From: a virus
Lineage: Duplodnaviria; Heunggongvirae; Uroviricota; Caudoviricetes
Direction: 5' to 3' (one strand)
Virus record (IMG/VR): IMGVR_UViG_2698536372_000019
Coordinates: 1 to 41,997 of that record
DNA: 41,997 bases
The stretch's first letter is position 1; each line of letters starts with the position of its first letter. Of the stretch, positions 1 through 20,823 are shown one piece after another. The notes under the pieces are model-generated. The model did no database searches, had not been told where the DNA came from, and was given only the letters and a program-made list of their open reading frames with translations. The translations under genes and the position numbers were made by a program.

Positions 1-681
1 CGGTTGCTGTTCTTTTTGCCGGAAGTAGCTGTCTTCCAGTTTTTCAAAGAATGCCCATGCCTGATCGGTTTCGAGCATTTTAGCGTGGCGGGCTGCGCCG
101 CGTTCTGTCCAGAGGGTGAGTGAGCGAACATTGCGAGCAATTTTTACAGAGTAGTTTAAAGCTACTCTGTGCTTCAACTCGCGCAATGATTCTCCTTCAA
201 CTTTGAAAAAGTGCTTCCCTTCAACAAAGCGTACTTTGTTCTCATGATGATTTTGGCGAATACGGATTGTTTCTGTCCCATACCCTCTCGCAAGAGTCTC
301 GGTTGTCACTACACGCACTCCCTGCCATTCCAGAACGGGAATTTCATCAGACTGATTCTGAACAACCACCAGCTCCGATTCCTGAACTGAAGGTGCATGA
401 ATTTTTTCTAATTTAACGTTATTTGCTTTCATTCTGTGTGCCTCCTTGCGTGCTTCGGCTGCGACGGTTGCGTAATTCAGATGACCCTGTTCGAGCAGGT
501 ATTCGCGGATATCAGACAACAGGATACGGTGAACCGCGTTCTTGTCCTTTCTCCGGTAAAGTTGTTTGGTGATCATGAAGTAGTTGGCAATAACGCCAGG
601 TATATCCCTGGTGCTGATACAGATTGTGTGCTGTTCAATTGCCTCGATCATCTCTTCACGGGTGACTAATGACTTTCTCAT
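1..681 (-). CDS. ant: anti-repressor Ant, middle-domain variant M2, 5' part (3' end runs off the window start)
   Basis: ATG at 681-679 preceded by GGAGGG; translation MRKSLVTREEMIEAIEQHT...; shared 85-aa N-terminal domain, then ORF6N/Bro-N-like middle ...GYGTETIRIRQNHHENKVRFVEGKHFF, identical to the copy at 17462-18182. Confidence 0.7.
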   Translation of the reverse strand, partial: MRKSLVTREEMIEAIEQHTICISTRDIPGVIANYFMITKQLYRRKDKNAVHRILLSDIREYLLEQGHLNYATVAAEARKEAHRMKANNVKLEKIHAPSVQESELVVVQNQSDEIPVLEWQGVRVVTTETLARGYGTETIRIRQNHHENKVRFVEGKHFFKVEGESLRELKHRVALNYSVKIARNVRSLTLWTERGAARHAKMLETDQAWAFFEKLEDSYFRQKEQQP

Positions 682-899
682 AGTCCCTCCTGAGCAGAAG
701 CGTTAACAGGGAGGCACCAGTAACTGAGAGAATTGCGTGAATCAGTGGAAAAACGGGCAGAGAAAATACATGGGGCGTCAGGAAGCTGAGAGCGAGCCTC
801 ATCTTCTGTTGGTGCAATAACGAAGTGATAGTGACGTTTTTGGCAGGAGTAAAAGCGCCAGATAAATTCAGGATGAGTTGGGGTAGGGATAGTAGCCAT
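678..899 (-). CDS. icd: Icd-like 73-aa protein; stop overlaps the ant start (ATGA)
   Basis: 73-codon ORF MATIPTPTHPEFIWRFYSCQKRHYHF... with AGGAGG RBS; size and position match P1 icd as I recall it; the 187-aa six-frame ORF is an upstream over-extension. Confidence 0.5.
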   Translation of the reverse strand: MATIPTPTHPEFIWRFYSCQKRHYHFVIAPTEDEARSQLPDAPCIFSARFSTDSRNSLSYWCLPVNASAQEGL

Positions 900-1282: not shown

Positions 1283-2247
1283 GCGTTGATGTATTGCTGG
1301 AACGGCACATTTTTACGTCCACCGGACGCTATCAGGATGCCGTTCTCCCGTAACCAGGCAAACAACGCGTTTTGCTTAAGCCCAACAACCTTTGCAAAAT
1401 TTCCAATCAGGATCCCCTTGGCCACTGATACCCGGTCGGCAAAATCGACTTTAGGGGCGGCGGCCACCAGCTGCTGATTTAGCTGGTGGGCTTTCTGTTC
1501 CAGAAGTTGCTTTTGTTCAGCCAGTTCGGCAGCCAGGCGCAGAGCTTCGGGAAGCGTCTGGGGGATTGCGATCGGTTGCTGTTCTTTTTGTCGGAAGTAG
1601 CTGTCTTCCAGTTTTTCAAAGAATGCCCACGCTTCATTTGTGTCCACGATCTTAGACATGCGTGCCGCTCCGCGCTCGGCCCAGAGAATTACCTGACTTG
1701 TATATTTGCTAACCAAGTGACTAATAGTCACTAGCCTTTTAAATTCCTTTAATTTTGAACCAGTTAAGAGATAGTAATGCTTACCTTCTTCAAAGCGATC
1801 GGGGTTGCGAGACAAATTTTTACGAATATTCGCTTCATCGGTCCCATACCCTTTAGCAAGAGTCTCAGTTGTCACTACACGCACTCCCAGCCATTCCAGA
1901 ACGGGAATTTCATCAGACTGATTCTGAACAACCACCAGCTCCGATTCCTGAACTGAAGGTGCATGAATTTTCTCTGATTTAACGTTAGTTGCTTTCATTC
2001 TGTGTGCCTCCTTGCGTGCTTCGGCTGCGACGGTTGCGTAATTCAGATGACCCTGTTCGAGCAGGTATTCGCGGATATCAGACAACAGGATACGGTGAAC
2101 CGCGTTCTTGTCCTTTCTCCGGTAAAGTTGTTTGGTGATCATGAAGTAGTTGGCAATAACGCCAGGTATATCCCTGGTGCTGATACAGATTGTGTGCTGT
2201 TCAATTGCCTCGATCATCTCTTCACGGGTGACTAATGACTTTCTCAT
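1283..2247 (-). CDS. ant: anti-repressor Ant, variant M1a, 3'-truncated at J1
   Basis: ATG 2247-2245 with GGAGGG RBS; N-terminal domain, ORF6N-like middle ...GYGTDEANIRKNLSRNPDRFEEGKHYYLL..., KilAC-like C-terminal region cut at ...NVPFQQYIN. Confidence 0.75.
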
Positions 2248-2465
2248 AGTCCCTCCTGAGCAGAAGCGTTAACAGGGAGGCACCAGTAACTGAGAGAATT
2301 GCGTGAATCAGTGGAAAAACGGGCAGAGAAAATACATGGGGCGTCAGGAAGCTGAGAGCGAGCCTCATCTTCTGTTGGTGCAATAACGAAGTGATAGTGA
2401 CGTTTTTGGCAGGAGTAAAAGCGCCAGATAAATTCAGGATGAGTTGGGGTAGGGATAGTAGCCAT
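2244..2465 (-). CDS. icd: Icd-like 73-aa protein (copy adjacent to pacB)
   Basis: identical to 678-899. Confidence 0.5.
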   Translation of the reverse strand: MATIPTPTHPEFIWRFYSCQKRHYHFVIAPTEDEARSQLPDAPCIFSARFSTDSRNSLSYWCLPVNASAQEGL

Positions 2466-2525
2466 ATTGGCAGCCTCCTTAGACGTTGGTATGTAACCAC
2501 CGCAGAAGAGACCAATCTTGCTGGC

Positions 2526-2601
2526 GGTGGACTGTACGGAGTTGGCCTTACTGGCGTCCAAGGTAACCAGCCTACCCGAAGGTAGCCCCATACAGCCCAC
2601 C
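2526..2601 (-). ncRNA. c4: c4-like antisense RNA, allele T1 (copy adjacent to pacB)
   Basis: identical to 960-1035. Confidence 0.45.
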
Positions 2602-2629
2602 ATTGTAGAGGTGTGCGTGTACGCCGATA

Positions 2630-2652
2630 CAAAAAAAGACGCGAGCGGCGTC
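2630..2652 (-). terminator. hairpin GACGCCGCUCGCGUC followed by U7 on the minus strand, between pacB and c4
   Basis: read on minus strand; a second copy sits at 1064-1086; candidate -10 TACAAT lies just downstream of it on the minus strand. Confidence 0.4.
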
Positions 2653-2783
2653 TGTATCGCCTTAGACTTAAGCGGGAGGCCAATCCCGGCACCCGTTTTA
2701 ATGAGGTGCCTGATAAGCATAAACCGAAAATGCCTCAAGGCGCAAGAGGTCAGGCTCAATGTAACATCGGTAGTTAAAAAACA

Positions 2784-4288: not shown

Positions 4289-5481
4289 TAATCATCATCC
4301 CCGTACAGTTTGCGGGTAACTTCTTCGTCTTCCTCCTCGTTTTCGTCCAGATCCTGTTCAAGCCATGCTTCGTTTGATATGCCTTCCGCATCGACATCAC
4401 CATAACCACCTGTATCGACGATATCGGCAATTTCTTCTCTACGATGCTCAATCCACAATGCGGCATCAGCGCGGCGGCTGGCGGCCCGTTCTCGCGCAAC
4501 TTTGTCCAGATCTTCAAGAGAAGGGCCACCGACGGCTGTTTGCCTTTCCTCATCATCGGTATTGGTCTTAGGAGCACGCAGATCGGCTTTGATTTGCTCC
4601 AGCATCAGGGGCGGAACTTTCCCACCATGCGCCTCGATGAATTCAGCTGCTTCCAGCACTGACCAGTTATTTTCACGCTTTCGTTCGTATGCCAGCTTAA
4701 CAATGCCAGCTTGCCCCATAGATAAAGCGTGCTTTTCCGCCTCCCGGCTTTCTTTTCGATAGTTATTCCGGATGCTGTAAATGGTGTTGATCAGACTGCT
4801 TATCTGCGCGGAACAGCTGTTTAGCATGCTCGCGATACGGTATTCAGGCGGAGTACCTTCATCATCGTCTTTTTGCTGATCGCGCATTTCCTGCACCAGG
4901 CGAATACACGTATCCCTGGCGTTCTCCAGCATAAGGAGATGAGAAAGAGACTTTTCAAGAAGAGTGGTTTCCAGAACATCGGCCCCGGACCGACGCAACA
5001 TAGCGCGCGCGGCCTTCCGCGCTTCAACGTTATCTATCAGGTAATCGCCAGCTTCGAATTCAAAGCGTTCACCATCATCATCCAGGGTGTCGCGTTCCAG
5101 GCGATCACGTAAGGTCCGGTGGGCGCGGGTGATCACGTCATGATCATCAGAACGATCATTTATGCGCTTATTTTGGCGCTTCGCATTCTCGACTGCGGCA
5201 CTGACAACGGCATTAACCCTTTGTTTTTCCGTTATTTCAGCCGCAATGTGATCACCTGCATGTTGATCATTAGAGTGATCAATGATCATGCTTTTTAGTG
5301 GCTTCCTGACTGGCTTATTTGGCTTGCGGCTGTCCGCTGTCCTGGTGTCTTCTTTGAAGGCACGGAGATAACGACGTGCAGTATTAGGGTTAAGATTAAA
5401 CTCGGCGGCATACTGTGCGATGGTGTAACCACCATCTCGCGCCAGGCGAGCAAAATTCTTCTTGTGATCGTCCCAGGTCAC
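4288..5481 (-). CDS. pacA: terminase small subunit PacA (397 aa), contains the pac site
   Basis: [39 protein letters not shown]...; acidic C-terminus; hexamer clusters inside the gene. Confidence 0.9.
5102..5288. other. pac: P1-type pac site: two clusters of four TGATCA/TGATCG hexamers, each containing GATC
   Basis: hexamers at 5102, 5130, 5141, 5153 and 5249, 5264, 5276, 5283, separated by about 90 bp. Confidence 0.85.
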
Positions 5482-5516
5482 TTATGCTTCCTTTCGTAAA
5501 AACTCTTTTTGACGCG

Positions 5517-5536
5517 AGGGTAACGAAAGTCACATG
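5517..5536 (-). promoter_or_regulatory. late-promoter-like element upstream of pacA (CATGTGACT, 5 nt, TACCCT)
   Basis: same motif and spacing as the three CAAGTGACT sites on the plus strand. Confidence 0.45.
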
Positions 5537-5566
5537 TCAAAAGGCCCGGAACGGGCAAGCAATCAA

Positions 5567-6019
5567 TCAGATACGTGCGGATGTGGCATTACCGTAATGA
5601 CGGTGCTGACGGGCCACCTTATTGAAAAGTTGACGCGCCATTACCCAAGGCTGGTGCTCCCGGCGTTCCTTTTCGTCCTGCGTCATATAGAGTTCGTTCT
5701 GGAGTTTTTCATCAAACCGGCGCGGAGCGCGGCTACGGCGAAAGAATTCAGGATTCAGAGAGTGGATCTGAAATCTACGTGGGCGTGTACTGTCATCAAT
5801 CAAAACAGACGAATACTTAGACACAGCGATAGCCTTTAAGCGCAGATAAACATCGCGCTTATCGACATCCAGATGCGGGTATTCCTTTTCAAGAATTGCT
5901 GCGAGTTCTTTCGCTGATAGAAGAGATTTAGTGCGGATCATGTAATCCGCAATCTCGTACGATGTTATTCGTGAGTGATTTATTTCCATGAAGTGGCGTC
6001 CCTGCCAGTTAAGTAACAT
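5567..6019 (-). CDS. lpa: late promoter activator Lpa (gp10-like, about 150 aa)
   Basis: position directly upstream of pacA and size as in P1; exact start not verified. Confidence 0.7.
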   Translation of the reverse strand: MLLNWQGRHFMEINHSRITSYEIADYMIRTKSLLSAKELAAILEKEYPHLDVDKRDVYLRLKAIAVSKYSSVLIDDSTRPRRFQIHSLNPEFFRRSRAPRRFDEKLQNELYMTQDEKERREHQPWVMARQLFNKVARQHRHYGNATSARI

Positions 6020-6089
6020 CCTGTCACCTACTGATTAGCCCATGTCAACTAATCAACGTGGAATATAATACCCTCGATTAAAGAAATAG

Positions 6090-6106
6090 CAATACATTAG
6101 AGCAAT
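6090..6106 (-). promoter_or_regulatory. C1 operator-like site upstream of lpa (14/17)
   Basis: CAATACATTAGAGCAAT on plus strand. Confidence 0.45.
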
Positions 6107-6107
6107 T

Positions 6108-7151
6108 TTATCTAACACTCGACGAGTGACTTGTGATAGCGCCGACTCCAAGCGCGTAATCAAAGAACAATCGTTGATGCATCGCCAGCCTACCGTGCGT
6201 CTTCTCCCAATTATCGCGGTCACGCTCAATATCACGCTGGCATGACTGGCACAGAGGAATTGCGTAAATGTCATGCGCGCATAATCGACTATGACGAACG
6301 ATATAAGGCGTAATGTGAGCGCCAGCTCCCGCCGCTCCACACCCACAGCATGGACGGGAAGCAACAAAGTCCATGTACTCAGGTAATTTTAGCGATTGCA
6401 GTTTTGGTATTTTGAAATGCGCCATGCCAGGGTCGGAGTCAACATCCACAGGGCATACTTTTGCACGCATCGGCGCGGCGCGTTCTTCCATCATCTGAAC
6501 ATATGCTGTAGCGCGATCGTCATACGGGCGAATATCCGCCTCTTTCAGAGGTCCGCTATCCTGCGTTGCGGCTTTCATCTTATTTATTGATATACGGCAA
6601 ACTTCTTCCGGCATCAGGTGCATCATGTTGCGCATGAAAGCCCACCAGCACAGTTCCTGAATACTTAAATCATGGCCATCTGAAAGCCCCATTTCCTGAC
6701 GGGCGACATCCAGTATCCAGTTAACGCGATTATTATGCAGCGTTTCTTTCAGCTCATTAAAACCACGCATCCGGTAATGGTTATCGTGATGCCAGCACAA
6801 CAACACCGCGCTATTGTCTCGTTCAGCGTGGACAATATGGTTGTCACACCAGCTACGATCTGCGGCCTGGCATTGCCCCTCTTTCCTGCGCAACCACGCC
6901 ACCAGCGCGTCAATTCCACCAATACGGCGAAACAGTTCATCGCTGTTAAAAAACGGCTGCAACGCCTCATTTGTTGCCATGGTTTGCTCGGTAACAACGA
7001 GGCCGTCTTCCATGTGCTCGATTAACTCACGCGGCACCGGCTCCATAATAAATTTACGGCCAGCCTCCACCAGCTTTCTGACCTCCTGATCCACTTTGAA
7101 CGTGGCGAGGCCAAGCTCTTTCTGTACAAAGGGAGTAATTACGGCTTTCAC
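6108..7151 (-). CDS. hypothetical 347-aa protein with C-terminal Cys/His-rich motif (P1 pdcB position)
   Basis: long ORF; CCGCG...H...C..C..C motif near C-terminus. Confidence 0.55.
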
Positions 7152-7178
7152 ATCACACCTTTAATCACTGATTGGGCT

Positions 7179-7379
7179 TTATCTGCTGCCCGGCATTCTC
7201 TGTTTAAGCACTACCATTTCCTGACGGCATAACACAGCAATAGCGGTCCTGGCACCAATTTGCTTACCAACCAGGTATTGCTTTACCTCGCGGCGACTCA
7301 CGCCATCAAGAAGCATCTTTAACGCTTCACGGGACAATTTGTTGTATTTGCGTGCCATTAATCTACTCCGCAGAACCAT
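7179..7379 (-). CDS. small basic protein, possible HTH (P1 pdcA position)
   Basis: 59-66 aa ORF immediately downstream of doc. Confidence 0.4.
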
Positions 7380-7743
7380 ACAATCTACGTAACGTGTCGG
7401 CGACAGAAGATACAGATATCTCTCCGGTCGCAGCCCCTACGGTAAGGTCTGCCAGTTCAGGTGAATCAAATACCTGCACCCCGTTACGGCGTAGAAATAA
7501 CAGCGCACTGTTTAGCGCGGTACGCTTATTGGCATCATTGAATATATGCCCTCTCGCTGTAGCCACCAGGTAGGTGGCGGAGACTTCGAAAAGGTCGGTG
7601 ATCTCTTCGTAGGCAACTCTGGCCTGAACTCTCCCGATAATGGCCTCTGCCCTACCCGGATCTGACATTCCCGGCAGGCCGCCGTAGCGGTTTATATTCG
7701 CATCATGAAGCGCAATAAGTTCTTCCGGTGATATATGCCTCAT
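7363..7743 (-). CDS. doc: Doc toxin (Fic-fold kinase), 126 aa
   Basis: [17 protein letters not shown]...[10 protein letters not shown]... matches P1 Doc as I recall it, including the Doc-type Fic motif. Confidence 0.95.
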
Positions 7744-7964
7744 TATCGGTTAACCAGTTCCTTGTTGGTGGAGTCCAGGGTGTCAAACAGGGATGCAAAT
7801 TCAGCATCCAGCGCCGCTTTTTTGTAGGCTTCGAAAGTAGCCTTGCTGACAATTACTGCTGGCTCACGGCCTCTGCGGGTGATTTCAACCTCTTCCCCGG
7901 CTTCAACATTGTTGAGCACTTCAGAAAGGTTGCCACGCGCGGTACGGAAGTTAATGGATTGCAT
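7743..7964 (-). CDS. phd: Phd antitoxin, 73 aa; stop overlaps the doc start
   Basis: [73 protein letters not shown]. Confidence 0.95.
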
Positions 7965-8036
7965 AAACACCTCGTGTACTCGTTATGTGTACACAATTAT
8001 AAACTTCACAGGCATAAAGCACCAGCACTTTGCAGC

Positions 8037-8426
8037 TTAAATCACCGGACAATCATCAAATTCCCCACTTCGGGCATCATTGATGACATGAGTGATCACA
8101 CCAAAAACAGCATTACTACCCGTGTAACCATCGTCATCTACTGGTAACGCCTCTTTCTTCCCGGTGCTTAAATCCTCCAGGTGCTGGCGCGGATACTTCC
8201 TGTATCTCTTTATGCGATATTCACCCTCCATAGCGCACACAAGCAGAGAACCATCAACCGGAGTAAGCGAGGAATCAACCACCAGCAAAGCACCCTGCAA
8301 TATTCCCTCACGGTGATGGCTATCAGCTGCCCGCATGAAGTAGGTTGCTGATGGATGTCTAATTATCTGCTGATCAAGAGAAATTCGGCTTTCAACATAA
8401 TCCGCCGCAGGAGAAGGGAAACCCAT
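8037..8426 (-). CDS. humD: HumD, UmuD'-like SOS mutagenesis protein (129 aa)
   Basis: S24 LexA/UmuD-like C-terminal domain; LexA box about 20 bp upstream. Confidence 0.8.
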   Translation of the reverse strand: MGFPSPAADYVESRISLDQQIIRHPSATYFMRAADSHHREGILQGALLVVDSSLTPVDGSLLVCAMEGEYRIKRYRKYPRQHLEDLSTGKKEALPVDDDGYTGSNAVFGVITHVINDARSGEFDDCPVI

Positions 8427-8446
8427 AGCGTTTTACCTCAAAAATA

Positions 8447-8462
8447 CTGTTTATCTGTACAG
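8447..8462. promoter_or_regulatory. LexA box CTGTTTATCTGTACAG (perfect CTGT-N8-ACAG)
   Basis: read directly; sits between divergent humD and the 8601 ORF. Confidence 0.8.
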
Positions 8463-8600
8463 TATACATTAAAGAAGCACCTTTGGTGCAAACGCGTTAT
8501 GTACATCAACCACCGCTGATGATTTTTGTGCGCTTTGCTACTATTCATCACCGCGGGATCAGCGTAACCTCGTTGCCAATCAGTTAATAAGGAATTAGCT

Positions 8601-8936
8601 ATGCCTAATCGCATTCCTCTCGATCCTGTATTGCCCAAAAATTTTGACTGCACTCCTAACGAGAAACGCTCTAAAGCTCAGCTGGACGCCTGGTGGGACC
8701 ATCCCTATGGGGTTACAGAACATGACGGGAAAATTGTTGTTTATTGTCTGAATGGTGGCGCGTGGGACCGTCCATCCGTGCTTGGTTTGGCAAATAACTA
8801 TGATGAAGCCTGTGAACTTGCCGAAAGACAGCAGGCAAGCTGGGTAAAAACACGGTCTGAACCGACATTCATGTTTTCAAAAGAACCGCCATTTATACTG
8901 GCGAGGATGCCGCAGCGACCGGATCATCAACAATAA
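8601..8936 (+). CDS. hypothetical 111-aa protein divergent from humD (possibly LexA-regulated)
   Basis: RBS TAAGGAA before ATG. Confidence 0.55.
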   Translation: MPNRIPLDPVLPKNFDCTPNEKRSKAQLDAWWDHPYGVTEHDGKIVVYCLNGGAWDRPSVLGLANNYDEACELAERQQASWVKTRSEPTFMFSKEPPFILARMPQRPDHQQ

Positions 8937-8966
8937 ATTGTTGCTGAATTTTCCTCAAGGGATGAG

Positions 8967-9182
8967 ATGAATCTCTTCTCATTAAAGCAGGAAGAAAGGG
9001 ATCGCGTCGAAGTGTCTCCAACTCTCGACCACAACCGGATGAACCTGGCCCAACTCGCCTGGTACAGCAAAGAATTAGAGATGTCTATTGCCCGACTTGA
9101 AAACGAAAAAGCCGCTATCCAAGCCCAGCATGAAGTAGTTCTGAACCGGATTAGAGAAATGCAAAACGATAATAGAGGCTAA
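8967..9182 (+). CDS. hypothetical 71-aa coiled-coil protein
   Basis: RBS AAGGGA; no similarity to theta/HolE that I can see. Confidence 0.4.
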   Translation: MNLFSLKQEERDRVEVSPTLDHNRMNLAQLAWYSKELEMSIARLENEKAAIQAQHEVVLNRIREMQNDNRG

Positions 9183-9242: not shown

Positions 9243-9767
9243 TTATTGGCTATGGCTAAAAATCAAATGAGACACTTCATGTGGTTGTAGCTCGTCAAGA
9301 TCCGGGGCCACAAAACCTTTTCCGAAAGACTTCACAAGTAATTCACCAGCCGCATCATTGTCACCTATTACACGAAAGTCATACGGCAGCATCGCAAGTT
9401 GACGGCGTAATCCTGCGGAGAAAGTCGAACCTAACAGCGCCCACGAATTGCCGCCCGCGTTGTGTACAGCTGCGCTCTTAAAAATAGACTCAGTTATCCA
9501 TATTGGGCCATCTTTTAAAGGAAGATAGGTTCCCCAAAGTAACTGTCTGCCATGTGATCGCGTGAAATACCGGGCCATCTTCGGATTGCTATGCTGCTTA
9601 GGAGCACCTGGTCTATATGTCTGATACCCAGCCAACATCCCATCAAACCTGTATAGAGGGAATGTAACTACTCCTTCACTTTCATCGATCCACTGTCTAT
9701 ATGGGTGTATATCATGGCGGTAGTTACGAGTTAGCAAATGAGCTTCCAGCTTTCCAAATTTTGTCAT
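9243..9767 (-). CDS. Toprim-like protein (174 aa)
   Basis: ITESIF and VIGDNDAAGE (DxD) motifs; ATG overlaps the stop of the upstream gene (ATGA). Confidence 0.45.
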   Translation of the reverse strand: MTKFGKLEAHLLTRNYRHDIHPYRQWIDESEGVVTFPLYRFDGMLAGYQTYRPGAPKQHSNPKMARYFTRSHGRQLLWGTYLPLKDGPIWITESIFKSAAVHNAGGNSWALLGSTFSAGLRRQLAMLPYDFRVIGDNDAAGELLVKSFGKGFVAPDLDELQPHEVSHLIFSHSQ

Positions 9768-10069
9768 ATTCCGTTCTTCCTGCATACTGGGCATGTGTTC
9801 TCTGTGAAATATGGGAAACTATTATCCAGCTCATCTACCCACTGTTTATGGTCGAAGCAGAAAAATATCTCCCACGGCATTCCATATTCTTCCATCCATA
9901 GGCGGATCTGCATTTCTATTGGAATCGGCGGTATTGCAGACACCATATCAACAGGATAACAGTTCAGACGACGTTCCAGTTCTTCTACTCTCTTCTGGAG
10001 ATGAAATATCCGATCCAGATGCACACGCCGCTCCCGTGCCATTTTAAAATAAAGCTCGCCGGTCATCAT
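9764..10069 (-). CDS. small coiled-coil/zinc-ribbon protein, paralog A (101 aa)
   Basis: C-terminal W..F.C.DH..W.DELD.SFPYF.E..CP.CR shared with 10069-10353; TAATG coupling. Confidence 0.5.
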   Translation of the reverse strand: MMTGELYFKMARERRVHLDRIFHLQKRVEELERRLNCYPVDMVSAIPPIPIEMQIRLWMEEYGMPWEIFFCFDHKQWVDELDNSFPYFTENTCPVCRKNGI

Positions 10070-10353
10070 TAACTCCTACATTCAGGGCAAGAGTTCCCTT
10101 CCGCAAAATAGGGGAAACTGCTATCAAGCTCATCACACCATCTGCGATGGTCGTAGCACCAAAACGCCTCCCACGGTGCACGGAAATACTTCATCCACCA
10201 GGACACTCGATCAGGTATATCTGCTGGTGGCAGCTCTTCTGGCAATAATTTGCCTGATAATTCCCTTTCCGCCCGCGCCAGCATTCCTTTTAGACTCGCA
10301 TTCTCTTTTTCAAGAATATCTATGCGCGCCTGTAACTCAGCTTTCGTTGGCAT
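10069..10353 (-). CDS. small coiled-coil/zinc-ribbon protein, paralog B (94 aa from internal Met)
   Basis: ...WEAFWCYDHRRWCDELDSSFPYFAEGNSCPECRS; the first 27 codons of the six-frame ORF are probably not translated. Confidence 0.5.
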   Translation of the reverse strand: MPTKAELQARIDILEKENASLKGMLARAERELSGKLLPEELPPADIPDRVSWWMKYFRAPWEAFWCYDHRRWCDELDSSFPYFAEGNSCPECRS

Positions 10354-10540
10354 GGTCCGCCTCATGCTTTTCAGCCACCAGCGGCAATAAAGCCCTGGCC
10401 ATCTTATGAACCAACAGAGCATCGATAATGCCAAGCGTATGCCCCGGCTTAATGTTTAATGCCGCCTCAAGGTGACACCTTTCCAGGTCACTTTTCTCGG
10501 CTTGTTTATGATGGTCTGGCGTAATAACGTCGCCCAAAAC
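10337..10540 (-). CDS. 3' end of a gene truncated by the N-run
   Basis: ...PGHTLGIIDALLVHKMARALLPLVAEKHEADHANES; upstream part lost in the gap. Confidence 0.35.
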   Translation of the reverse strand, partial: VLGDVITPDHHKQAEKSDLERCHLEAALNIKPGHTLGIIDALLVHKMARALLPLVAEKHEADHANES

Positions 10541-10557
10541 NNNNNNNNNNNNNNNNN
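10541..10557. other. assembly gap J2 (17 N)
   Basis: N-run placed 3 codons before the expected ant stop. Confidence 0.95.
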
Positions 10558-11582
10558 GCTACTGGTTTTAACAAACCAGCATCAAGTAGCTTGCGAGTTA
10601 ACCACTGCTGGCCTTTACCCGTTAATTGGGGCGTCAGCCGTATCTGGTAACCATCTTCATCATCCAGCACCACTTCTTTCACCGTGAAATACCCGGCGTT
10701 GATGTACTGCTGGAACGGCACATTTTTACGTCCACCGGACGCTATCAGGATGCCGTTCCCCCGTAACCAGGCAAACAACGCGTTTTGCTTAAGCCCAACA
10801 ACCTTTGCAAAATTTCCAATCAGGATCCCCTTGGCCCCTGATACCCGGTCGGCAAAATCGACTTTAGGGGCGGCGGCCACCAGCTGTTGTTCCAACTGCA
10901 TTTTCTGTTCTGCCAACTCGGCAGCCAGGCGCAGTGCTTCGGGGAGTGTTTGGGGGATCGCTGGAGAAGCCGTGCTAGCCTGCTGCAATTCTTCCAGTTT
11001 GTCGATCAGCGAACGGCGGACCGCTTTTGACTCGCGCGCGGCGACTCGCAGGGCTTGTTTGAAAGTCATGGTGATAATGTCTATGTTTGCACCATTTTTG
11101 CGACCTACACTTTTTGTGTAGGTCTCACCTTCAAGCTCATCTACAACCTTCTCAATAAACTTATTATTTCTTACTAATGGTTCCCCACATAACTTACGCG
11201 CCTCATTAACCATCTTTAACAGCGTCTGGCTGTCGATTGTGTCTCCGGTGTTGGGGATAGCATCCATGACCGGTGCTGGTGTGGTTGCTGTCAAAGGCTT
11301 TGTAACGACAACATCTGGTTTGCTTGCTTTCATTCTGTGTGCCTCCTTGCGTGCTTCGGCTGCGACGGTTGCGTAATTCAGATGACCCTGTTCGAGCAGG
11401 TATTCGCGGATATCAGACAACAGGATACGGTGAACCGCGTTCTTGTCCTTTCTCCGGTAAAGTTGTTTGGTGATCATGAAGTAGTTGGCAATAACGCCTG
11501 GTATATCCCTGGTGCTGATACAGGCAGTGTGCTGTTCAATTGCCTCGATCATCTCTTCACGGGTGACTAATGACGTTCTCAT
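10558..11582 (-). CDS. ant: anti-repressor Ant, variant M3 (AntA-like middle domain), nearly complete
   Basis: N-terminal MRTSLVTREEMIEAIEQHTACIST..., distinct middle ...LLKMVNEARKLCGEPLVRNNKFIEKV..., KilAC-like C-terminus ...LTRKLLDAGLLKPV. Confidence 0.75.
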
Positions 11583-11800
11583 AGCCCCTCCTGAACAGAA
11601 GCGTTAACAGGGAGGCACCAGTAACTGAGAGAATTGCGCGAGTCAGTAGAAAAGCGTGCGGAGAAAATGCAGGGAGCATCCGGAAGCTGAGAACGTGCCT
11701 CATCTTCTGTTGGTGCGATAACGAAGTGATAGTGGCGTTTCTGGCAGGAGTAAAAGCGCCAGATAAATTCAGGGCGTGCGCAAGGATTGGCATTAACCAT
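11579..11800 (-). CDS. icd: Icd-like 73-aa protein, allele T2 (MVNANPCARPEF...)
   Basis: 73 codons, overlaps ant start; N-terminus differs from the T1 allele. Confidence 0.45.
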   Translation of the reverse strand: MVNANPCARPEFIWRFYSCQKRHYHFVIAPTEDEARSQLPDAPCIFSARFSTDSRNSLSYWCLPVNASVQEGL

Positions 11801-12050
11801 AGTTACGGCCTCACAATCAGGTTTAACAACCTGCTACCCGCTGTCNNNTCAGTAGAAAAGCGTGCGGAGAAAATGCAGGGAGCATCCGGAAGCTGAGAAC
11901 GTGCCTCATCTTCTGTCGGTGCAATAACGAAGTGATAGTGGCGTTTCTGGCAGGAGTAAAAGCGCCAGATAAATTCAGGGCGTGCGCAAGGATTGGCATT
12001 AACCATAGTTACGGCCTCACAATCAGGTTTAACAACCTGCTACCCGCTGC
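11640..12050. repeat. about 206-bp unit present twice, separated by NNN (11846-11848)
   Basis: direct duplication of the icd-prime region flanking an N-run (J3); likely assembly artefact. Confidence 0.7.
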
Positions 12051-12127
12051 TAAACAGGTGGCAGGACGTGACGGGGTTAGCAGACTGGCGATTGTGAAAC
12101 CAGCAGGCCGAAGCCTCCCCATCACGC
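12051..12127 (-). ncRNA. c4: c4-like antisense RNA, allele T2 (77 nt)
   Basis: same closing stem and UUCG hairpin as T1; internal segments UCACAAUC and CUGCUAA complementary to 12084-12091 and 12071-12077 partners (see finding). Confidence 0.45.
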
Positions 12128-12306
12128 CCCACCATAATTTGGGCGTAACGCGGTTTTACGGACACAAAAATACCGCAATATCGGATATCTGCGGCTGTCC
12201 GCACAATCATTCAGGCTGCTAAACCCGGTCGCAGAATTTGCTACGACGTAGGAACTATAAGCCTGAACAACAGGAAGATCAATAGTCTGGCGTCCAATAG
12301 TAGTTT

Positions 12307-12340
12307 ATTTGCCCCAATAAATCAAATTTATTAGAGCAAT
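12307..12340. promoter_or_regulatory. bipartite C1 operator: degenerate left half plus perfect site AAATTTATTAGAGCAAT (12324-12340)
   Basis: 17/17 match to reverse complement of consensus. Confidence 0.7.
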
Positions 12341-12450
12341 AACAATCTGGTTGAATGTTTCCTCTCTGAGGTTGCAATGTGCACACTTAGTGTATTATTT
12401 GTATGCACTAATAAATATATTATTTTTAATAATAAATAATTGACAACTGA

Positions 12451-12470
12451 CAAGTGACTTCAGTCAAAAT
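12451..12470 (+). promoter_or_regulatory. late-promoter-like element CAAGTGACT, 5 nt, CAAAAT
   Basis: conserved motif and spacing shared with 13781, 36264 and (minus strand) 5528. Confidence 0.5.
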
Positions 12471-12600
12471 CATCACACGCCCGGTACGGATGGATCCCTT
12501 TTCAAATATTCCATGGACGGCACAGTCTGAGTACCGGGCGCTACCTTCAGTTGTATTGCTAAGCCGCCGCTGGTGGCTTTTCTTTTTTGTAGGGGGAGCT

Positions 12601-13242
12601 ATGGATAAGAAAATATGCGTTGTTTCGATGAGCGTCGGCAAACCGGCGTCAATGACTGCTGCATGGATCAACAATGAGCTGATCATGGCTGAGCGGACCA
12701 GCTACCCTGAACGCCGCCGCGATATGGAACTCCAGCTTCTGCGCGAATTGCGAGAAAAAGAGGAAAAGGGTTTTATCGTGCTGGTGGAAGAGGAAAACAG
12801 CTTTATTACCGGTCGAGTTGGCCAGCGTGTAAGGTTGCGCGATCCCTTCATGAACGGCAGGCCGGTACTAATTGAAGCAATGCAGATTTACAAGGAGCTG
12901 GAACGCCAGAAAGCGATCAAGTTACCGCGCAAGGAATCCGGCAAATACATCCTCCACCAAAGCATCTTCGATTCCGAACACGATAAAAAAGGCGATGAAT
13001 TTTTCAACATCAACTGGAGCGAAATAACAACAGAGCATGTTCTGACATTGTTATGCTGTTTCGCAACGGAATACAACAATGTTGCCAGCGCCGACTACAT
13101 CAGGGCAATGGCTGGAGAAGTTGAGGCCCGCCAGGAACCATCGTTACTAAGACCTCTGATTAACATAATTCACGGAACCCAAACACTGGCGCAAAAACAA
13201 GTACCACAAGGGGAATTGACGGGTAAAGGTAATTATCTCTGA
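12601..13242 (+). CDS. hypothetical late protein (213 aa)
   Basis: ATG with AGGGGGAG RBS; the six-frame ORF start at 12454 is rejected. Confidence 0.55.
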   Translation: MDKKICVVSMSVGKPASMTAAWINNELIMAERTSYPERRRDMELQLLRELREKEEKGFIVLVEEENSFITGRVGQRVRLRDPFMNGRPVLIEAMQIYKELERQKAIKLPRKESGKYILHQSIFDSEHDKKGDEFFNINWSEITTEHVLTLLCCFATEYNNVASADYIRAMAGEVEARQEPSLLRPLINIIHGTQTLAQKQVPQGELTGKGNYL

Positions 13243-13281
13243 AAGATGCCCGGCGATAGACCGGGCAAAAGGGCGGAAAGT

Positions 13282-13530
13282 TTAATCTGCATTCAGGAGC
13301 AATGCGTTATCTATGATGATCTGCTCCCATTCTTCGAATGCCCGATCGCGGACCCCCTGGGGAACACTGTTTGTTTTGAAATCAACGACTGTCCGCCATT
13401 TCCCGTCCGGACGGTACATGCGCAGAGCTTTACTGCCCCCTTCCCTTCGCACCTCAACGTTATGCTTGTCAGCAAACTCTTGTAATGCTCGTAGCGTCCC
13501 ATGCTTTACTGTGTAGTATCGCTTTTTCAA
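13282..13530 (-). CDS. small 82-aa protein, weak HicA-like pattern, TTG start
   Basis: GGAGAG RBS before TTG; ...RREGGSKALRMYRPDGKWRTVVDF...; convergent with the 12601 gene. Confidence 0.35.
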   Translation of the reverse strand: MKKRYYTVKHGTLRALQEFADKHNVEVRREGGSKALRMYRPDGKWRTVVDFKTNSVPQGVRDRAFEEWEQIIIDNALLLNAD

Positions 13531-13780
13531 GTTTTCTCTCCAGCCTGTGCCAAGGCTTTGACGTCGAAATTATGTCCTATTCGGTTTTATTGTATCAGAT
13601 AGTGTGGACATATTATTTCACGTCCGGCGTAGTCGGTCATAGCTTTTGCCTTCCACCTTTTCCACGCCGTATCTAATCGGCGCCCGATGAAATGTTATTG
13701 CACTAATATATTTCAATATTTCGCTGACACTTGAACAGCGAAACACCCCCATAGATAGCTTGTTCATTGGTAATCCTTAA

Positions 13781-13800
13781 CAAGTGACTAGTGTTAAATT
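13781..13800 (+). promoter_or_regulatory. late-promoter-like element CAAGTGACT, 5 nt, TAAATT
   Basis: upstream of the portal-like gene. Confidence 0.5.
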
Positions 13801-13833
13801 CCGTTCAAACACGATGCGAATTATTCTAATTAA

Positions 13834-16564
<2,731 letters not shown>

Positions 16565-16569
16565 CCACC

Positions 16570-16632
16570 AAAAATAACCCCGGCGGCTGCCGGGGTATCT
16601 GAAATCACTGGCGGCCGAAAGGCCGCCTTTTT
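16570..16632. terminator. back-to-back rho-independent terminators
   Basis: plus strand GGCGGCCGAAAGGCCGCC + T5 (16610-16632); minus strand CCCCGGCAGCCGCCGGGG + T-rich (16570-16594). Confidence 0.65.
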
Positions 16633-16639
16633 AATTTAA

Positions 16640-17055
16640 TCACTCAGCCGCTACTGGTTTTAACAAACCAGCATCAAGTAGCTTGCGAGTTAACCACTGC
16701 TGGCCTTTACCCGTTAATTGGGGCGTCAGCCGTATCTGGTAACCATCTTCATCATCCAGCACCACTTCTTTCACCGTGAAATACCCGGCGTTGATGTACT
16801 GCTGGAACGGCACATTTTTACGTCCACCGGACGCTATCAGGATGCCGTTCCCCCGTAACCAGGCAAACAACGCGTTTTGCTTAAGCCCAACAACCTTTGC
16901 AAAATTTCCAATCAGGATCCCCTTAGCCACTGATACCCGGTCGGCAAAATCGACCTTAGGGGCGGCGGCCACCAGCTGCTGATTTAGCTGGTGGGCTTTC
17001 TGTTCCAGAAGTTGCTTTTGTTCAGCCAGTTCGGCAGCCAGGCGCAGAGCTTCGG
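16640..17055 (-). CDS. ant: Ant C-terminal (KilAC-like) fragment, 5'-truncated by the N-run
   Basis: ...AAPKVDFADRVSVAKGILIGNFAKVVGLKQNALFAWLR...KPVAAE stop. Confidence 0.6.
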
Positions 17056-17066
17056 NNNNNNNNNNN
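17056..17066. other. assembly gap J4 (11 N)
   Basis: sequence on the two sides is unrelated. Confidence 0.95.
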
Positions 17067-17220
17067 GCTGAACATTTTGTGATGAATGCAACGGAGGAGG
17101 AAGCGCGGCGAGGGCTTACTAGAGTGATGGCGGAATTTGGCGAACTCCTGGGTAAGGTAAACAATGCCCTTTCAATCAGTTCAGCAAGATCCAAAGCGTT
17201 AACAGCTTCCATGATGAAAT
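17067..17220 (+). pseudogene. orphan 3' end of an unidentified gene (...MAEFGELLGKVNNALSISSARSKALTASMMK stop)
   Basis: open frame enters from the N-run and ends at TAA 17218-17220. Confidence 0.3.
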
Positions 17221-17221
17221 A

Positions 17222-17247
17222 AAAAAGCCTGGCAAGGAGCCAGGCTG
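17222..17247 (-). terminator. hairpin AGCCUGG-CUCCUUG-CCAGGCU followed by a U-run on the minus strand
   Basis: read directly. Confidence 0.5.
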
Positions 17248-17352
17248 CACAAAAGAGCGGGTTTGTATTCCGCATCCAATCAATCAAGAAAGAGTATAGC
17301 ACACAGGTACTGAAGTGAAAAAATGTGATTCTCGATTAACAAAATATCTACC

Positions 17353-17376
17353 ATTGCTCTAATTGATTGCTATAAT
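17353..17376 (+). promoter_or_regulatory. C1 operator-like site (14/17) overlapping a TATAAT -10
   Basis: ATTGCTCTAATTGATTG then CTATAAT. Confidence 0.45.
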
Positions 17377-17436
17377 TGAGCCGCAGTTTTTGTCAACTAC
17401 GAAGACGTTGCCATTATAGACTCCGTGACATCATTG

Positions 17437-17460
17437 GCGGCCGAAAGGCCGCCTTTTTTA
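17437..17460 (+). terminator. GGCGGCCGAAAGGCCGCC + T6
   Basis: same hairpin as at 16610. Confidence 0.6.
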
Positions 17461-17461
17461 A

Positions 17462-18182
17462 TCATTCAGCCGCCACCGGTTTTAACAAGCCAGCTTCGAG
17501 CAGTTTACGCGTCAACCACTGCTGGCCTTTACCCGTTAATTGGGGCGTCAGCCGTATCTGGTAACCATCTTCATCATCCAGCACCACTTCTTTCACCGTG
17601 AAATACCCGGCGTTGATGTATTGCTGGAACGGCACATTTTTACGTCCACCGGACGCTATCAGGATGCCGTTCTCCCGTAACCAGGCAAACAACGCGTTTT
17701 GCTTAAGCCCAACAACCTTTGCAAAATTTCCAATCAGGATCCCCTTGGCCACTGATACCCGGTCGGCAAAATCGACTTTAGGGGCGGCGGCCACCAGCTG
17801 CTGATTTAGCTGGTGGGCTTTCTGTTCCAGAAGTTGCTTTTGTTCAGCCAGTTCGGCAGCCAGGCGCAGAGCTTCTGGAAGCGTCTGGGGGATTGCAACC
17901 GGTTGCTGTTCTTTTTGCCGGAAGTAGCTGTCTTCCAGTTTTTCAAAGAATGCCCATGCCTGATCGGTTTCGAGCATTTTAGCGTGGCGGGCTGCGCCGC
18001 GTTCTGTCCAGAGGGTGAGTGAGCGAACATTGCGAGCAATTTTTACAGAGTAGTTTAAAGCTACTCTGTGCTTCAACTCGCGCAATGATTCTCCTTCAAC
18101 TTTGAAAAAGTGCTTCCCTTCAACAAAGCGTACTTTGTTCTCATGATGATTTTGGCGAATACGGATTGTTTCTGTCCCATAC
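17462..18182 (-). CDS. ant: anti-repressor Ant, variant M2, 3' part (5'-truncated at J5)
   Basis: ...TETIRIRQNHHENKVRFVEGKHFFKVEGESLRELKH... through the KilAC-like domain to the stop; overlaps in sequence with the 5' part at 1-290. Confidence 0.7.
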
Positions 18183-18183
18183 N
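18183..18183. other. assembly junction J5 (single n)
   Basis: frame and homology break inside ant. Confidence 0.9.
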
Positions 18184-19227
18184 ACCCGTTAATTGGGGCG
18201 TCAGCCGTATCTGGTAACCATCTTCATCATCCAGCACCACTTCTTTCACCGTGAAATACCCGGCGTTGATGTACTGCTGGAACGGCACATTTTTACGTCC
18301 ACCGGACGCTATCAGGATGCCGTTCCCCCGTAACCAGGCAAACAACGCGTTTTGCTTAAGCCCAACAACCTTTGCAAAATTTCCAATCAGGATCCCCTTA
18401 GCCACTGATACCCGGTCGGCAAAATCGACCTTAGGGGCGGCGGCCACCAGCTGCTGATTTAGCTGGTGGGCTTTCTGTTCCAGAAGTTGCTTTTGTTCAG
18501 CCAGCTCGGCAGCCAGGCGCAGAGCTTCGGGAAGCGTCTGAGGGATTGCGATCGGTTGCTGTTCTTTTTGCCGGAAGTAGCTGTCTTCCAGTTTTTCAAA
18601 GAATGCCCATGCCTGATCGGTTTCGATCATTTTAGCGTGGCGGGCTGCGCCGCGTTCCGTCCAGAGAGTGAGGTTTCTGGCGTTCTTACCAACAGAGTTA
18701 CTAAAAGTAACTCTGTTCTTAAATTCCTTTAATTTTGAACCAGTTAAAAGAAAGTAGTGTTTACCTTCTTCAAAGCGATCGGAGTTGCAAGACAAATTTT
18801 TACGAATATTGCCTTCATCGGTTCCGTACCCCTTAGCAAGAGTTTCGGTTGTTACGACACGTACTCCCTGCCATTCCAGAACGGGAATTTCATCAGACTG
18901 ATTCTGAACAACCACCATCTCCGATTCCTGAACTGAAGGTGCATGAATTTTTTCTGATTTAACGTTAGTTGCTTTCATTCTGTGTGCCTCCTTGCGTGCT
19001 TCGGCTGCGACGGTTGCGTAATTCAGATGACCCTGTTCGAGCAGGTATTCGCGGATATCAGACAACAGGATACGGTGAACCGCGTTCTTGTCCTTTCTCC
19101 GGTAAAGTTGTTTGGTGATCATGAAGTAGTTGGCAATAACGCCTGGTATATCCCTGGTGCTGATACAGGCAGTGTGCTGTTCAATTGCCTCGATCATCTC
19201 TTCACGGGTGACTAATGACGTTCTCAT
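18184..19227 (-). CDS. ant: anti-repressor Ant, variant M1b, 3'-truncated at J5
   Basis: MRTSLVTREEMIEAIEQHTACIST...; ORF6N-like middle; KilAC-like region ends at ...LTPQLTG. Confidence 0.75.
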
Positions 19228-19445
19228 AGCCCCTCCTGAACAGAAGCGTTAACAGGGAGGCACCAGTAACTGAGAGAATTGCGCGAGTCAGTAGAAAAGC
19301 GTGCGGAGAAAATGCAGGGAGCATCCGGAAGCTGAGAACGTGCCTCATCTTCTGTCGGTGCAATAACGAAGTGATAGTGGCGTTTCTGGCAGGAGTAAAA
19401 GCGCCAGATAAATTCTTGGCGTGCGCAAGGATTGGCATTAACCAT
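19224..19445 (-). CDS. icd: Icd-like 73-aa protein, allele T3
   Basis: MVNANPCARQEF...; overlaps ant start. Confidence 0.45.
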   Translation of the reverse strand: MVNANPCARQEFIWRFYSCQKRHYHFVIAPTEDEARSQLPDAPCIFSARFSTDSRNSLSYWCLPVNASVQEGL

Positions 19446-19495
19446 AGTTACGGCCTCATGTACAGGTTTAACAACCTGCTACCCGCTGTCAAACA

Positions 19496-19572
19496 GGTGG
19501 CAGGACGTGACGGGGTTGACAGACTGGCGTACATGAAACCAGCAGGCCGAAGCCTCCCCATCACGCCCCACC
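19496..19572 (-). ncRNA. c4: c4-like antisense RNA, allele T3 (77 nt)
   Basis: differs from T2 only in two short segments that co-vary with the icd leader. Confidence 0.45.
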
Positions 19573-19745
19573 ATAATTCGGGCGTAACGTGGTTTACGGA
19601 CACAAAAATACCGCAATATCGGATATCTGCGGTTGTCCGCATGTACATTCAGGCTGTCAAACCCGGTCGCAGAATTTACTACGACGTAGGAACTATAAGC
19701 CTGAACAACAGGAAGATCAATAGTCTGGCGTTCGATGGTAGTTTA

Positions 19746-19778
19746 TTTGCTCTAATAAATCAAATTTATTAGAGCAAT
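19746..19778. promoter_or_regulatory. palindromic pair of C1 operators (TTTGCTCTAATAAAT / AAATTTATTAGAGCAAT)
   Basis: right half 17/17, left half 14/17; arms inverted around 3 central nt. Confidence 0.75.
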
Positions 19779-19824
19779 AAGCGGTGTCGTAAAAATCAAT
19801 ACAATCGCAATCATATGAATAGAA

Positions 19825-20823
19825 TCAATCATTACCTCGCGACGGTTTCTGCGTGATAAACGTCTCAAGCATCTTTTCCGCGATTGCCGACCAGGTGTGA
19901 CACTGGACCTTTTCAGCATTTTTCACGCGATCAACGCGAGCAATAACCTCATCCCAATCAATCCGCGACTTGATAACCATATGGTTCACCAAAGCCAGGC
20001 GATCTGGCGGAAGACAATCGGGAGGCGTTAATACCAACGCCCCGCACATTGCCGCCTCAAGTACAGTTAATCCAAGGCTTTCGGGATGCGTAACGATAAA
20101 CACGTCACTCTTACGCAATTCAGCTGCAAATTCGGTTGCTGGTACCGGCGTCCGTCTGTATGGGGTTACCGATATATTCCCCGGATCAATGGTAATCAAT
20201 CCGTCATCGGTCAACGTTCTGGCCTCATACGGAACGGTCAGACGCTGAAGGTTCATAAGGATACTTAAGGAGTGATCAAACCCACTAACATCAAATGCAG
20301 CGTGGTCTACAAAAATACGCAGAACATCGTCTGTTTTGGTTTCCAGATGGAACAGATCCTGATTCGCTGCCCATCCAACATGTTTGTTAAAGCGATTATG
20401 ACGCTCTAACCTGCCGGGATTATCCAGGTACCGCCAGGTATCATCGCGGACAGTAAAAGTAATATCGACTGGTGCCGAATCCAGCATAGAACCGTCGTAT
20501 ACCTGGGCTACCCATCCAGTGAATCGACGACGCAGTTGCACGCCTATTTCCCTGGGCACCGTAGTAAAATACCGCAATCCTGGCGCTAAAATGGCTTTCG
20601 CAGAACACGAGGTCGCAGCGGTCAACACAGCTTCAACATAATCCTCCGGGCTTTCGACGCCGGGGGAATATGGACGATGGAATTGCAATGTTACCCCTGC
20701 CTCACTAAAGGCGCAGGCCAGGTTGTAAGCCCACATTTCCGTATATGTTTTCACATCACTGATAGCTTCAAATTTTCGCCCAATGATCAGGATGTTCATC
20801 GGCTTTTCCTCATTCCATTGCAT
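19825..20823 (-). CDS. GT4-family glycosyltransferase-like protein (332 aa; P1 dbn position)
   Basis: EX7E motif ESLGLTVLEAAMCGALVL; immediately downstream of ban. Confidence 0.6.
   Translation of the reverse strand: MQWNEEKPMNILIIGRKFEAISDVKTYTEMWAYNLACAFSEAGVTLQFHRPYSPGVESPEDYVEAVLTAATSCSAKAILAPGLRYFTTVPREIGVQLRRRFTGWVAQVYDGSMLDSAPVDITFTVRDDTWRYLDNPGRLERHNRFNKHVGWAANQDLFHLETKTDDVLRIFVDHAAFDVSGFDHSLSILMNLQRLTVPYEARTLTDDGLITIDPGNISVTPYRRTPVPATEFAAELRKSDVFIVTHPESLGLTVLEAAMCGALVLTPPDCLPPDRLALVNHMVIKSRIDWDEVIARVDRVKNAEKVQCHTWSAIAEKMLETFITQKPSRGND

Follow-up and report, generated by a model that had tools for sequence, protein, structure and literature searches.

How many antirepressor genes can one P1-like phage-plasmid carry, and by what route do such genes come to share both of their ends while differing in the middle? 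The question is raised by IMG/VR record IMGVR_UViG_2698536372_000019, whose 41,997 nucleotides (nt; positions 1–41,997, hereafter ‘the window’) contain six pieces of ant, the antirepressor gene of the immI immunity region of phage P1. The window is the whole of a short-read draft scaffold of a P1-like phage-plasmid from Escherichia coli, in the record of which an identical Ant of 342 amino acids is annotated as ‘partial’. We read it, with a probability of roughly 0.8, as a P1-like E. coli phage-plasmid with at least four paralogous immI-type modules that were split by assembly and that encode mosaic Ant proteins with swapped middles.

On this reading, each module would comprise a C4 antisense RNA together with the a1/b1 and a2/b2 sequences that it targets, followed by icd and by an ant gene with nested in-frame Ant1 and Ant2. 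In P1, the antirepressor is a heterodimer of Ant1 and Ant2, and Ant synthesis is repressed by c4 RNA (PMC8546580); by analogy, Ant1/Ant2 would inactivate the C1 repressor, and pairing of C4 with a2/b2 would block translation of icd and thereby expression of ant. The modules would occupy different places of the P1 backbone (after pacB, pro and dbn, and between c8 and mat). Because modules of 1–2 kilobases (kb) are 90–100% identical over c4–icd–ant(N) and ant(C), the assembler would have broken at them and the scaffolder would have linked the contig ends by short runs of Ns, leaving six ant fragments. Ant itself would have five parts: an Ant1-only N-terminal portion of 83 amino acids (aa) with four predicted helices, reaching to the conserved Shine–Dalgarno sequence and ATG of ant2; a disordered linker; an exchangeable middle, either ORF6N (at least four subtypes) or P1-type and Rha-like (at least four subtypes); a long helix; and a KilAC domain. 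The middles would be old, diverged cassettes that moved between modules and plasmids when the conserved flanks underwent homologous recombination or gene conversion; additional crossovers would have occurred within the ORF6N core.

The six ant pieces are as follows.

Ant fragment A, 1..681, minus strand: N-terminal part and ORF6N middle (type a); ends at the scaffold end, without C-terminus; continues into E.
Ant fragment B, 1283..2247, minus strand: N-terminal part, ORF6N (type c) and two thirds of KilAC; the last ~50 codons are lost at N 1282.
Ant fragment C, 10558..11582, minus strand: N-terminal part, P1-type (distantly Rha-like) middle and KilAC.
Ant fragment D, 16640..17055 (coding 16643–17055), minus strand: last 137 codons (KilAC) and stop; beside pro; cut by N 17056–66.
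Ant fragment E, 17462..18182 (coding 17465–18182), minus strand: half of the ORF6N middle (type a), KilAC and stop; cut by N 18183.
Ant fragment F, 18184..19227, minus strand: N-terminal part, ORF6N (type b) and KilAC minus its last 23 codons.

All six pieces are interrupted by an N run (1282, 10541–57, 17056–66 or 18183) or by the scaffold end. Fragment B is contiguous with pacB (2804–4288), F with icd, c4 and dbn; C lies on an isolated contig of 1288 bp (10558–11845) with N runs at both ends; E adjoins a c8/ref remnant (17067–17459); and D matches the C-terminal part of F at 99.7% identity. Merged via their 100% overlap, A and E form an intact open reading frame (ORF) of 372 aa, that is, one gene. 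An earlier note on this DNA had counted six ant copies, each with the common N- and C-terminal domains. The common ends are real: in alignment, the first 84–86 aa are nearly identical in all four pieces with an N-terminus (A, B, C and F), which bears out the shared 85-aa N-terminal domain, and the C-terminal part is nearly identical from ‘IPQTLPEALRLAAELAEQK’ on in the five that have it (B, C, D, E and F). The count does not hold, given that D and E are C-terminal only, A has no C-terminus, and A and E are one gene. Four upstream flanks (pacB, a second pacB-like flank, mat and dbn) and four distinct middles argue instead that the window represents four or more modules and does not hold six intact genes.

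The backbone around these pieces is that of P1. P1, P7, RCS47 and relatives match the prt/pro region of the window at 98% (megablast). By local blastn against P1 (NC_005856), window 2806–9168 corresponds to P1 pacB to lxr, and 19832–41931 is collinear with P1 from 73650 down to 53177, dbn and ban to pmgF. Between both blocks the gene order is scrambled relative to P1: it runs pmgU, N, ant/icd, N, icd/c4, mat, lxc, prt and pro and, after pro, ant C-terminus, N, c8/ref remnant, ant C-terminus, N, ant, icd, c4 and dbn. About 11.6 kb of P1 backbone, from pmgT to gene 5 (P1 85360–73704; tail and baseplate genes), is not in the scaffold at the syntenic place, 10540/10558 to 19832, and is either elsewhere in the assembly or deleted.

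Repeats account for most of the breaks. The window has five N runs (1282, 10541–10557, 11846–11848, 17056–17066 and 18183), and ant/icd repeat sequence borders four of them on both sides, the exception being 10541–57, which joins pmgU to an ant end. Window 1–283 is 100% identical to 17900–18182; the contig ends beside the NNN at 11846–48 overlap by 201 nt at 99% (2 mismatches), and those beside N 18183 overlap by ~490 nt at 97.5%, likewise unmerged. The apparent tandem icd at 11579–12006 is thus an artefact of two overlapping contig ends having been joined by NNN and not merged. Listed ORFs of 340, 358, 220 and 384 aa are chimeric, running through Ns into unrelated sequence. The c8–ant–c4–dbn junction was considered as a real inversion between oppositely oriented modules and rejected as a scaffold join, because no closed PLSDB plasmid, unlike the scaffold, connects a c8 flank to a dbn flank through one ant. 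As expected if ant repeats routinely break assemblies, many contig-end ‘partial’ Ant N-terminal fragments are on record in public protein sets and drafts.

Closed relatives show that multiple copies do occur. Plasmid pE2865-1 (NZ_AP018809) has four icd–ant units: ant–icd between c8 and mat, icd–ant between sim and kilA (the canonical P1 position), icd–ant between dbn and gene 5, and icd–ant between pacB and c1. Two further closed plasmids, pAUSMDU00014361_02 and pEA18_2, additionally have ant–icd between pro and lydD/lyz, and a sixth module site, downstream of mat, occurs in IMG/VR contigs. A tblastn search with the 86-aa N-terminal part found 917 places in 577 PLSDB records, and a DNA search with an ant-containing query (17067–20400) found up to five ant-matching places in single Escherichia albertii plasmids. 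Three IMG/VR loci (L049, L048 and L070) have mismatched ant flanks, for example dbn upstream with c1 downstream, or pacB upstream with ant fused at kilA; these reflect either recombination between modules or between the KilAC parts of ant and kilA, or further assembly chimeras.

Several points tell against our reading. The scaffold does not reveal how many modules the source genome truly has, or in which order. The comparison loci are mostly draft-derived IMG/VR contigs, possibly chimeric at repeats, next to four closed plasmids inspected in detail. The A side (1–1281) and the B side (1573–2847), which sit side by side across a single N, are 91% identical over their full length, including the last 41 nt of pacB, which suggests either a tandem pair or two P1-like elements in the sample; a tandem pair of this kind was unseen among the ~50 pacB-side loci examined. 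Finally, that the extra modules work as in P1 (Ant–C1 binding, Ant2 expression and C4 repression) is an argument by analogy, function being established for P1. A real tandem pair after pacB was itself rejected as a candidate, the only locus with extra spacing there (L026) having no second ant.

Two elements in the sample are the core of the strongest competing explanation, that of a mixed template: two P1-like plasmids, or a polymorphic population, whose shared backbone was collapsed and whose divergent immI modules were scaffolded side by side. The A and B sides, pacB end included, look like two alleles of the locus between pacB and c1, and the 201-nt overlap of contigs 3 and 4 contains 2 mismatches. 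A single plasmid with four or five modules would, however, break assembly likewise, and the 41 pacB-like nt could belong to a duplicated unit; we regard a mixed template as possible but somewhat unlikely. The scaffold could also be taken literally, as one replicon with six ant paralogues in the drawn order and tandem pairs at 1–2807 and 16640–19227. The several modules of closed relatives, with their up to five ant-matching places per plasmid, are in keeping with it, and the arrangement ant F–icd–c4–dbn occurs in closed E. albertii plasmids. Yet none of the copies is free of interruption by Ns or the scaffold end, the overlap of A with E is 100% identical, and the contig ends at 11846–48 and 18183 are overlapping, not consecutive; the order of flanks (pmgU–ant, then pro–ant–c8–ant–ant–dbn) fits no closed plasmid, with 11.6 kb of backbone skipped, and the loci examined include no tandem pair. 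A literal reading is therefore very improbable.

Each ant copy belongs to a whole module of the immI type, whose other features are listed here.

icd of module A, 678..899, minus strand: 73 aa; its stop overlaps the ant start.
C4 antisense RNA of module A, 954–1041, minus strand: Rfam RF01695, 75.9 bits.
isrK-like upstream element of module A, 1066–1143, minus strand: Rfam RF01394, 60.8 bits.
icd of module B, 2244–2465, minus strand: 73 aa.
C4 RNA of module B, 2520–2607, minus strand: Rfam RF01695.
isrK-like element of module B, 2632–2709, minus strand: Rfam isrK match (60.8 bits).
icd of module C, 11579–11800, minus strand: 73 aa; followed by NNN at 11846–48.
Second, partial icd, 11803–12006, minus strand: artefactual duplicate from overlapping contig ends.
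C4 RNA beside mat, 12054–12139, minus strand: Rfam RF01695; a TTAGCAG, b GATTGTG.
a1/b1 target element beside mat, 12208–12260, minus strand: Rfam c4-a1b1.
icd of module F, 19224–19445, minus strand: 73 aa.
C4 RNA of module F, 19493–19578, minus strand: Rfam RF01695; a TTGACAG, b GTACATG.
a1/b1 element of module F, 19646–19698, minus strand: Rfam c4-a1b1.

The four C4 RNAs upstream of icd score 69.6–75.9 bits against RF01695, whose gathering score is 45. Two modules have c4-a1b1 as their leader, and modules A and B have an isrK-family element instead; these pacB-side modules thus have an isrK (Gifsy-1-type) leader where P1 has a1/b1, plus a C4 RNA. All four complete icd ORFs terminate 4 nt inside ant, an arrangement of the kind that accompanies translational coupling. 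In A, B, C and F, AAGGAGG-N8-ATG stands at codon 84 (Met84), the layout of P1 ant2 at nt 48937. Since the ant2 start sits at this codon, what the earlier note called a constant N-terminal domain corresponds to the Ant1-only extension, and the variable region starts 2–3 codons into Ant2. C1 is 96.8–100% identical across 63 loci, and with C1 nearly invariant the middle probably does not track C1 alleles.

The C4 RNAs vary in their recognition loops. In alignment-based extraction, the a′/b′ loops are perfectly complementary to the a1/b1 targets upstream and the a2/b2 targets downstream in 35 of 35 P1-type modules, two of the window among them, with b2 located at the icd ribosome-binding site. The P1-type alleles combine 2 a with 5 b sequences in nine combinations, to which the isrK type is added. 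In isrK-type modules, b′–b2 pairing is 8/8 when G–U is counted, and a′–a2 pairing is 4/8 in fixed register; when the register is moved by one base, as judged by eye, a′ and a2 pair with one G–U. Three C4 specificities are present in the window, none matching that of P1, and in pE2865-1 each of the four modules has a different one. C4 type, site and middle type assort independently. It is tempting, if decidedly tentative, to suppose that P1-like phage-plasmids keep as many as five immI modules under separate keys, every module having its own C4 specificity, from a combinatorial set of at least 2 a and 5 b alleles plus the isrK type, and its own middle reshuffled by gene conversion, and that the swapped ORF6N or Rha-like middle sets a second specificity, such as the repressor or host factor targeted. 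If so, a single element could withstand de-repression by several heteroimmune relatives and have several ‘keys’ aboard to break the immunity of resident prophages.

The domains of Ant were assigned with Pfam. ANT/KilAC (PF03374) is found in B, C, D, E and F (E 1e-17 to 1e-32; 64.9–111.7 bits against a gathering cut-off of 25.3), so that the C-terminal domain earlier described as KilAC-like is confirmed. ORF6N (PF10543) is found in the middle of A, B, E and F (E 1e-13 to 1e-20; 51–71 bits, cut-off 27.8), whereas copy C and P1 Ant1 have no ORF6N match and show ANT only. The earlier label of an ORF6N/Bro-N-like middle in two forms (M1 and M2) was right about ORF6N; the window has three forms of it, A/E, B and F.

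The third middle, M3 (copy C residues 85–208), had been called an unrelated AntA-like domain. Unrelated to ORF6N it appears to be: the profile–profile probability is 0.4%, with a shallow as with a 60-sequence ORF6N profile. AlphaFold models give beta-alpha-alpha-beta-beta-alpha-alpha for M3 (predicted local distance difference test above 95) and beta-beta-alpha-alpha-beta-alpha-beta-alpha-alpha for ORF6N. AntA (PF08346) was rejected, having no match at E≤10 in the middle of copy C or of P1 Ant1. A full HMMER scan of 1.84 billion representatives returned 288 relatives of M3, most of them ~240 aa long with the domain at the N-terminus, the layout of Ant2. A Pfam scan found AntA in none of 111 full-length or 32 domain-only relatives. 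ANT occurred in 41 of the 111 and Phage_pRha (PF09669) in 8 (best 3.7e-8); among the 32, Phage_pRha matched 12 (best E 4e-4) and was the sole recurring family, with copy C itself giving no match. M3, common to copy C and P1 Ant1, thus looks like a divergent, distantly Rha-like domain and not AntA, through a transitive link that lies below the curated cut-off for the window protein. A search of solved-structure sequences with the M3 profile gave nothing meaningful, Foldseek against the PDB with the full Ant model gave nothing at E≤1e-3, and NCBIfam has no model for any ant copy. The N-terminal 86-aa part matches no Pfam family; a sequence search with it returned only short or partial proteins and no clue to fold or function, and in a scan of one genome per species the extension occurred essentially only in Escherichia records.

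Both middles can stand in one protein. At the canonical site between sim and kilA, an Ant of 465–469 aa (L077–L080 in IMG/VR; P0301/P0048) has the Rha-like domain and then ORF6N in tandem, both between a P1-type N-terminal part and KilAC, and hence the two middles are separable modules. The ORF6N cassette is 54–65% identical to ~190-aa ORF6N proteins of many enterobacterial prophages, which, judging by this similarity, are a plausible reservoir for it. In RefSeq, the proteins treated here already bear the names ‘phage antirepressor KilAC domain-containing protein’ or ‘ORF6N domain-containing protein’.

How the middles came to differ can be read from pairwise comparisons. C and F are similar from c4 as far as codon 86 (98.5% over 522 nt); the similarity then breaks off and returns at the ‘AIPQTLPEAL’ linker. 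Identity of A/E with F drops from 97–100% to 47–73% over nt 391–570 and then returns to 97%, and that of B with F is 83–97% up to nt 510 and 54–67% from there to nt 630. Because A/E and B diverge from F over different tracts, F itself is mosaic. Among 69 unique ORF6N-type genes, nucleotide diversity is 0.01–0.09 at codons 1–120 and 211–372 and 0.2–0.4 at codons 131–210. Synonymous divergence (dS) is 0.8–2.0 in the ORF6N core and 0.01–0.1 in the flanks, the ratio of nonsynonymous to synonymous divergence (dN/dS) is 0.2–0.36, and segment alleles re-assort across the population. By these measures the cores are old, purified alleles inside recently shared flanks, a pattern that marks recombinational import or flank homogenisation and not local hypermutation.

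The middle type is also independent of the site. Between pacB and c1, four ORF6N subtypes or a P1-type middle are found; between c8 and mat, ORF6N-a, ORF6N-b or P1-type-a; between dbn and gene 5, P1-type-b or ORF6N-b; and at the canonical site between sim and kilA, the P1 type, the tandem form or ORF6N-c. Together with the dS contrast and the mosaic core, this supports the proposal that conserved flanks would allow cassette exchange by homologous recombination. Breakpoints lie only in part where the earlier note looked for them, at domain boundaries: some are at the edges of ORF6N, and exchange tracts also end inside the domain.

Could the middles have diverged at each site, by positive selection on point mutations and with no movement of cassettes? 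Variation confined mostly to one domain of a protein in phage–phage conflict is what such a process might leave, but a core dS 10–100 times that of the flanks, dN/dS below 0.4, a non-homologous domain in the same slot, the same middle types at different sites and the re-assortment of segment alleles make it highly improbable. That the three middles are one domain, with differences due to sequencing or frameshift error, is favoured by poor assembly quality and nothing else, and this account, named beforehand as what would overturn the proposal, is ruled out almost to certainty, given that the middles fall in different Pfam families (profile–profile probability as above) and that closed plasmids and dozens of IMG/VR contigs contain every type again, intact and in frame.

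Two other regions of the window depart from P1. At 9243–10434, three minus-strand ORFs (183, 101 and 121 aa) have no P1 counterpart; the 101- and 121-aa ORFs have a C-terminal motif in common (...W..F.C.DH..W.DELD.SFPYF......CP.CR), and the location corresponds to the ead/Ea22-like region of pE2865-1. At 27442–28463, the P1 alignment has a break of ~1 kb within the dmt methyltransferase region, where the ORF at 25409–28696 encodes 1095 aa and exceeds P1 Dmt.

Taken together, the earlier reading was largely right about mechanism, wrong in one domain label and too high in copy number. Swapping among ANT, ORF6N and pRha domains and extra icd–ant loci in P1-like plasmids are already published, and what is added here is an example of known antirepressor domain swapping at nucleotide resolution. 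A caution goes with it: short-read assemblies of P1-like plasmids are routinely broken and scrambled by the repeated immI modules, and copy numbers, gene orders, and ‘partial’ or chimeric Ant proteins from such scaffolds are not to be trusted. If functional, stacked modules with distinct self-complementary C4 keys and reshuffled Ant would matter more than the swap itself, and would offer a testable explanation for the way in which heteroimmunity becomes diversified and stacked among P1-like phage-plasmids that circulate together and commonly carry resistance genes in E. coli.

Among known systems, the P1 immI operon is the closest. The order is identical: a C4 RNA, for which a1/b1 and a2/b2 are the targets, comes before an icd of 73 aa whose end overlaps the start of ant, and ant1 and ant2 are nested, with a Shine–Dalgarno sequence and ATG at Met84. 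Copy C has P1's own architecture, at 79% nt identity (60–65% aa in the N-terminal and about 88–93% aa in the C-terminal part). P1, in contrast, has one module, between sim and kilA, whereas the window and many closed relatives have extra sites; most modules here have an ORF6N middle, which P1 Ant lacks; and the C4 loops differ from those of P1, with an isrK-type leader in two modules. P1 KilA, encoded beside the canonical ant, is a further member of the modular set, with a KilAC domain 64% identical to that of Ant; unlike Ant it has a KilA-N N-terminal domain, no Ant1 extension and no C4 control, and it is absent from the window.

Salmonella Gifsy-1 has an isrK-family RNA element upstream of an antirepressor operon, isrK–orf45–anrP (PMC4825925), as modules A and B have an isrK match upstream. 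Gifsy-1 is of another phage type with another antirepressor, whereas here isrK replaces the P1-style a1/b1 leader and is followed by a C4 RNA. Venturini et al. 2019 (PMC6906374) described ant between pacB and c1 in pTZ20_1P and RCS47, and icd–ant1/2 homologues in RD-1 of pSvP1. These insertions lie at the same pacB–c1 and mat-side sites, but were given as regions of difference, without domain architecture, C4 specificity or mosaicism. We found no paper analysing multi-site immI modules, C4 keys or mosaic structure in P1-like plasmids, which is weak evidence of novelty, many subscription-journal papers being outside the search.

The wider frame is the ‘Bro network’, in which domains are swapped among ANT, ORF6N, Phage_pRha, Bro-N, AntA and KilA-N proteins with co-located immunity RNAs of the C4/isrK class (PMC10111431). 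The modules described here are alike in that ANT pairs with ORF6N, a pRha-like domain, or both in tandem, so that an N-proximal domain of DNA-binding type is swapped on a constant KilAC beside a C4/isrK-type RNA. The underlying domain-shuffling analysis is reportedly that of Iyer, Koonin and Aravind in 2002. Unlike in that network, the swap here lies downstream of a lineage-specific 83-aa Ant1 extension and within paralogues of a single phage lineage that are otherwise 97–100% identical, which is why the recombination tracts are visible at nucleotide resolution.

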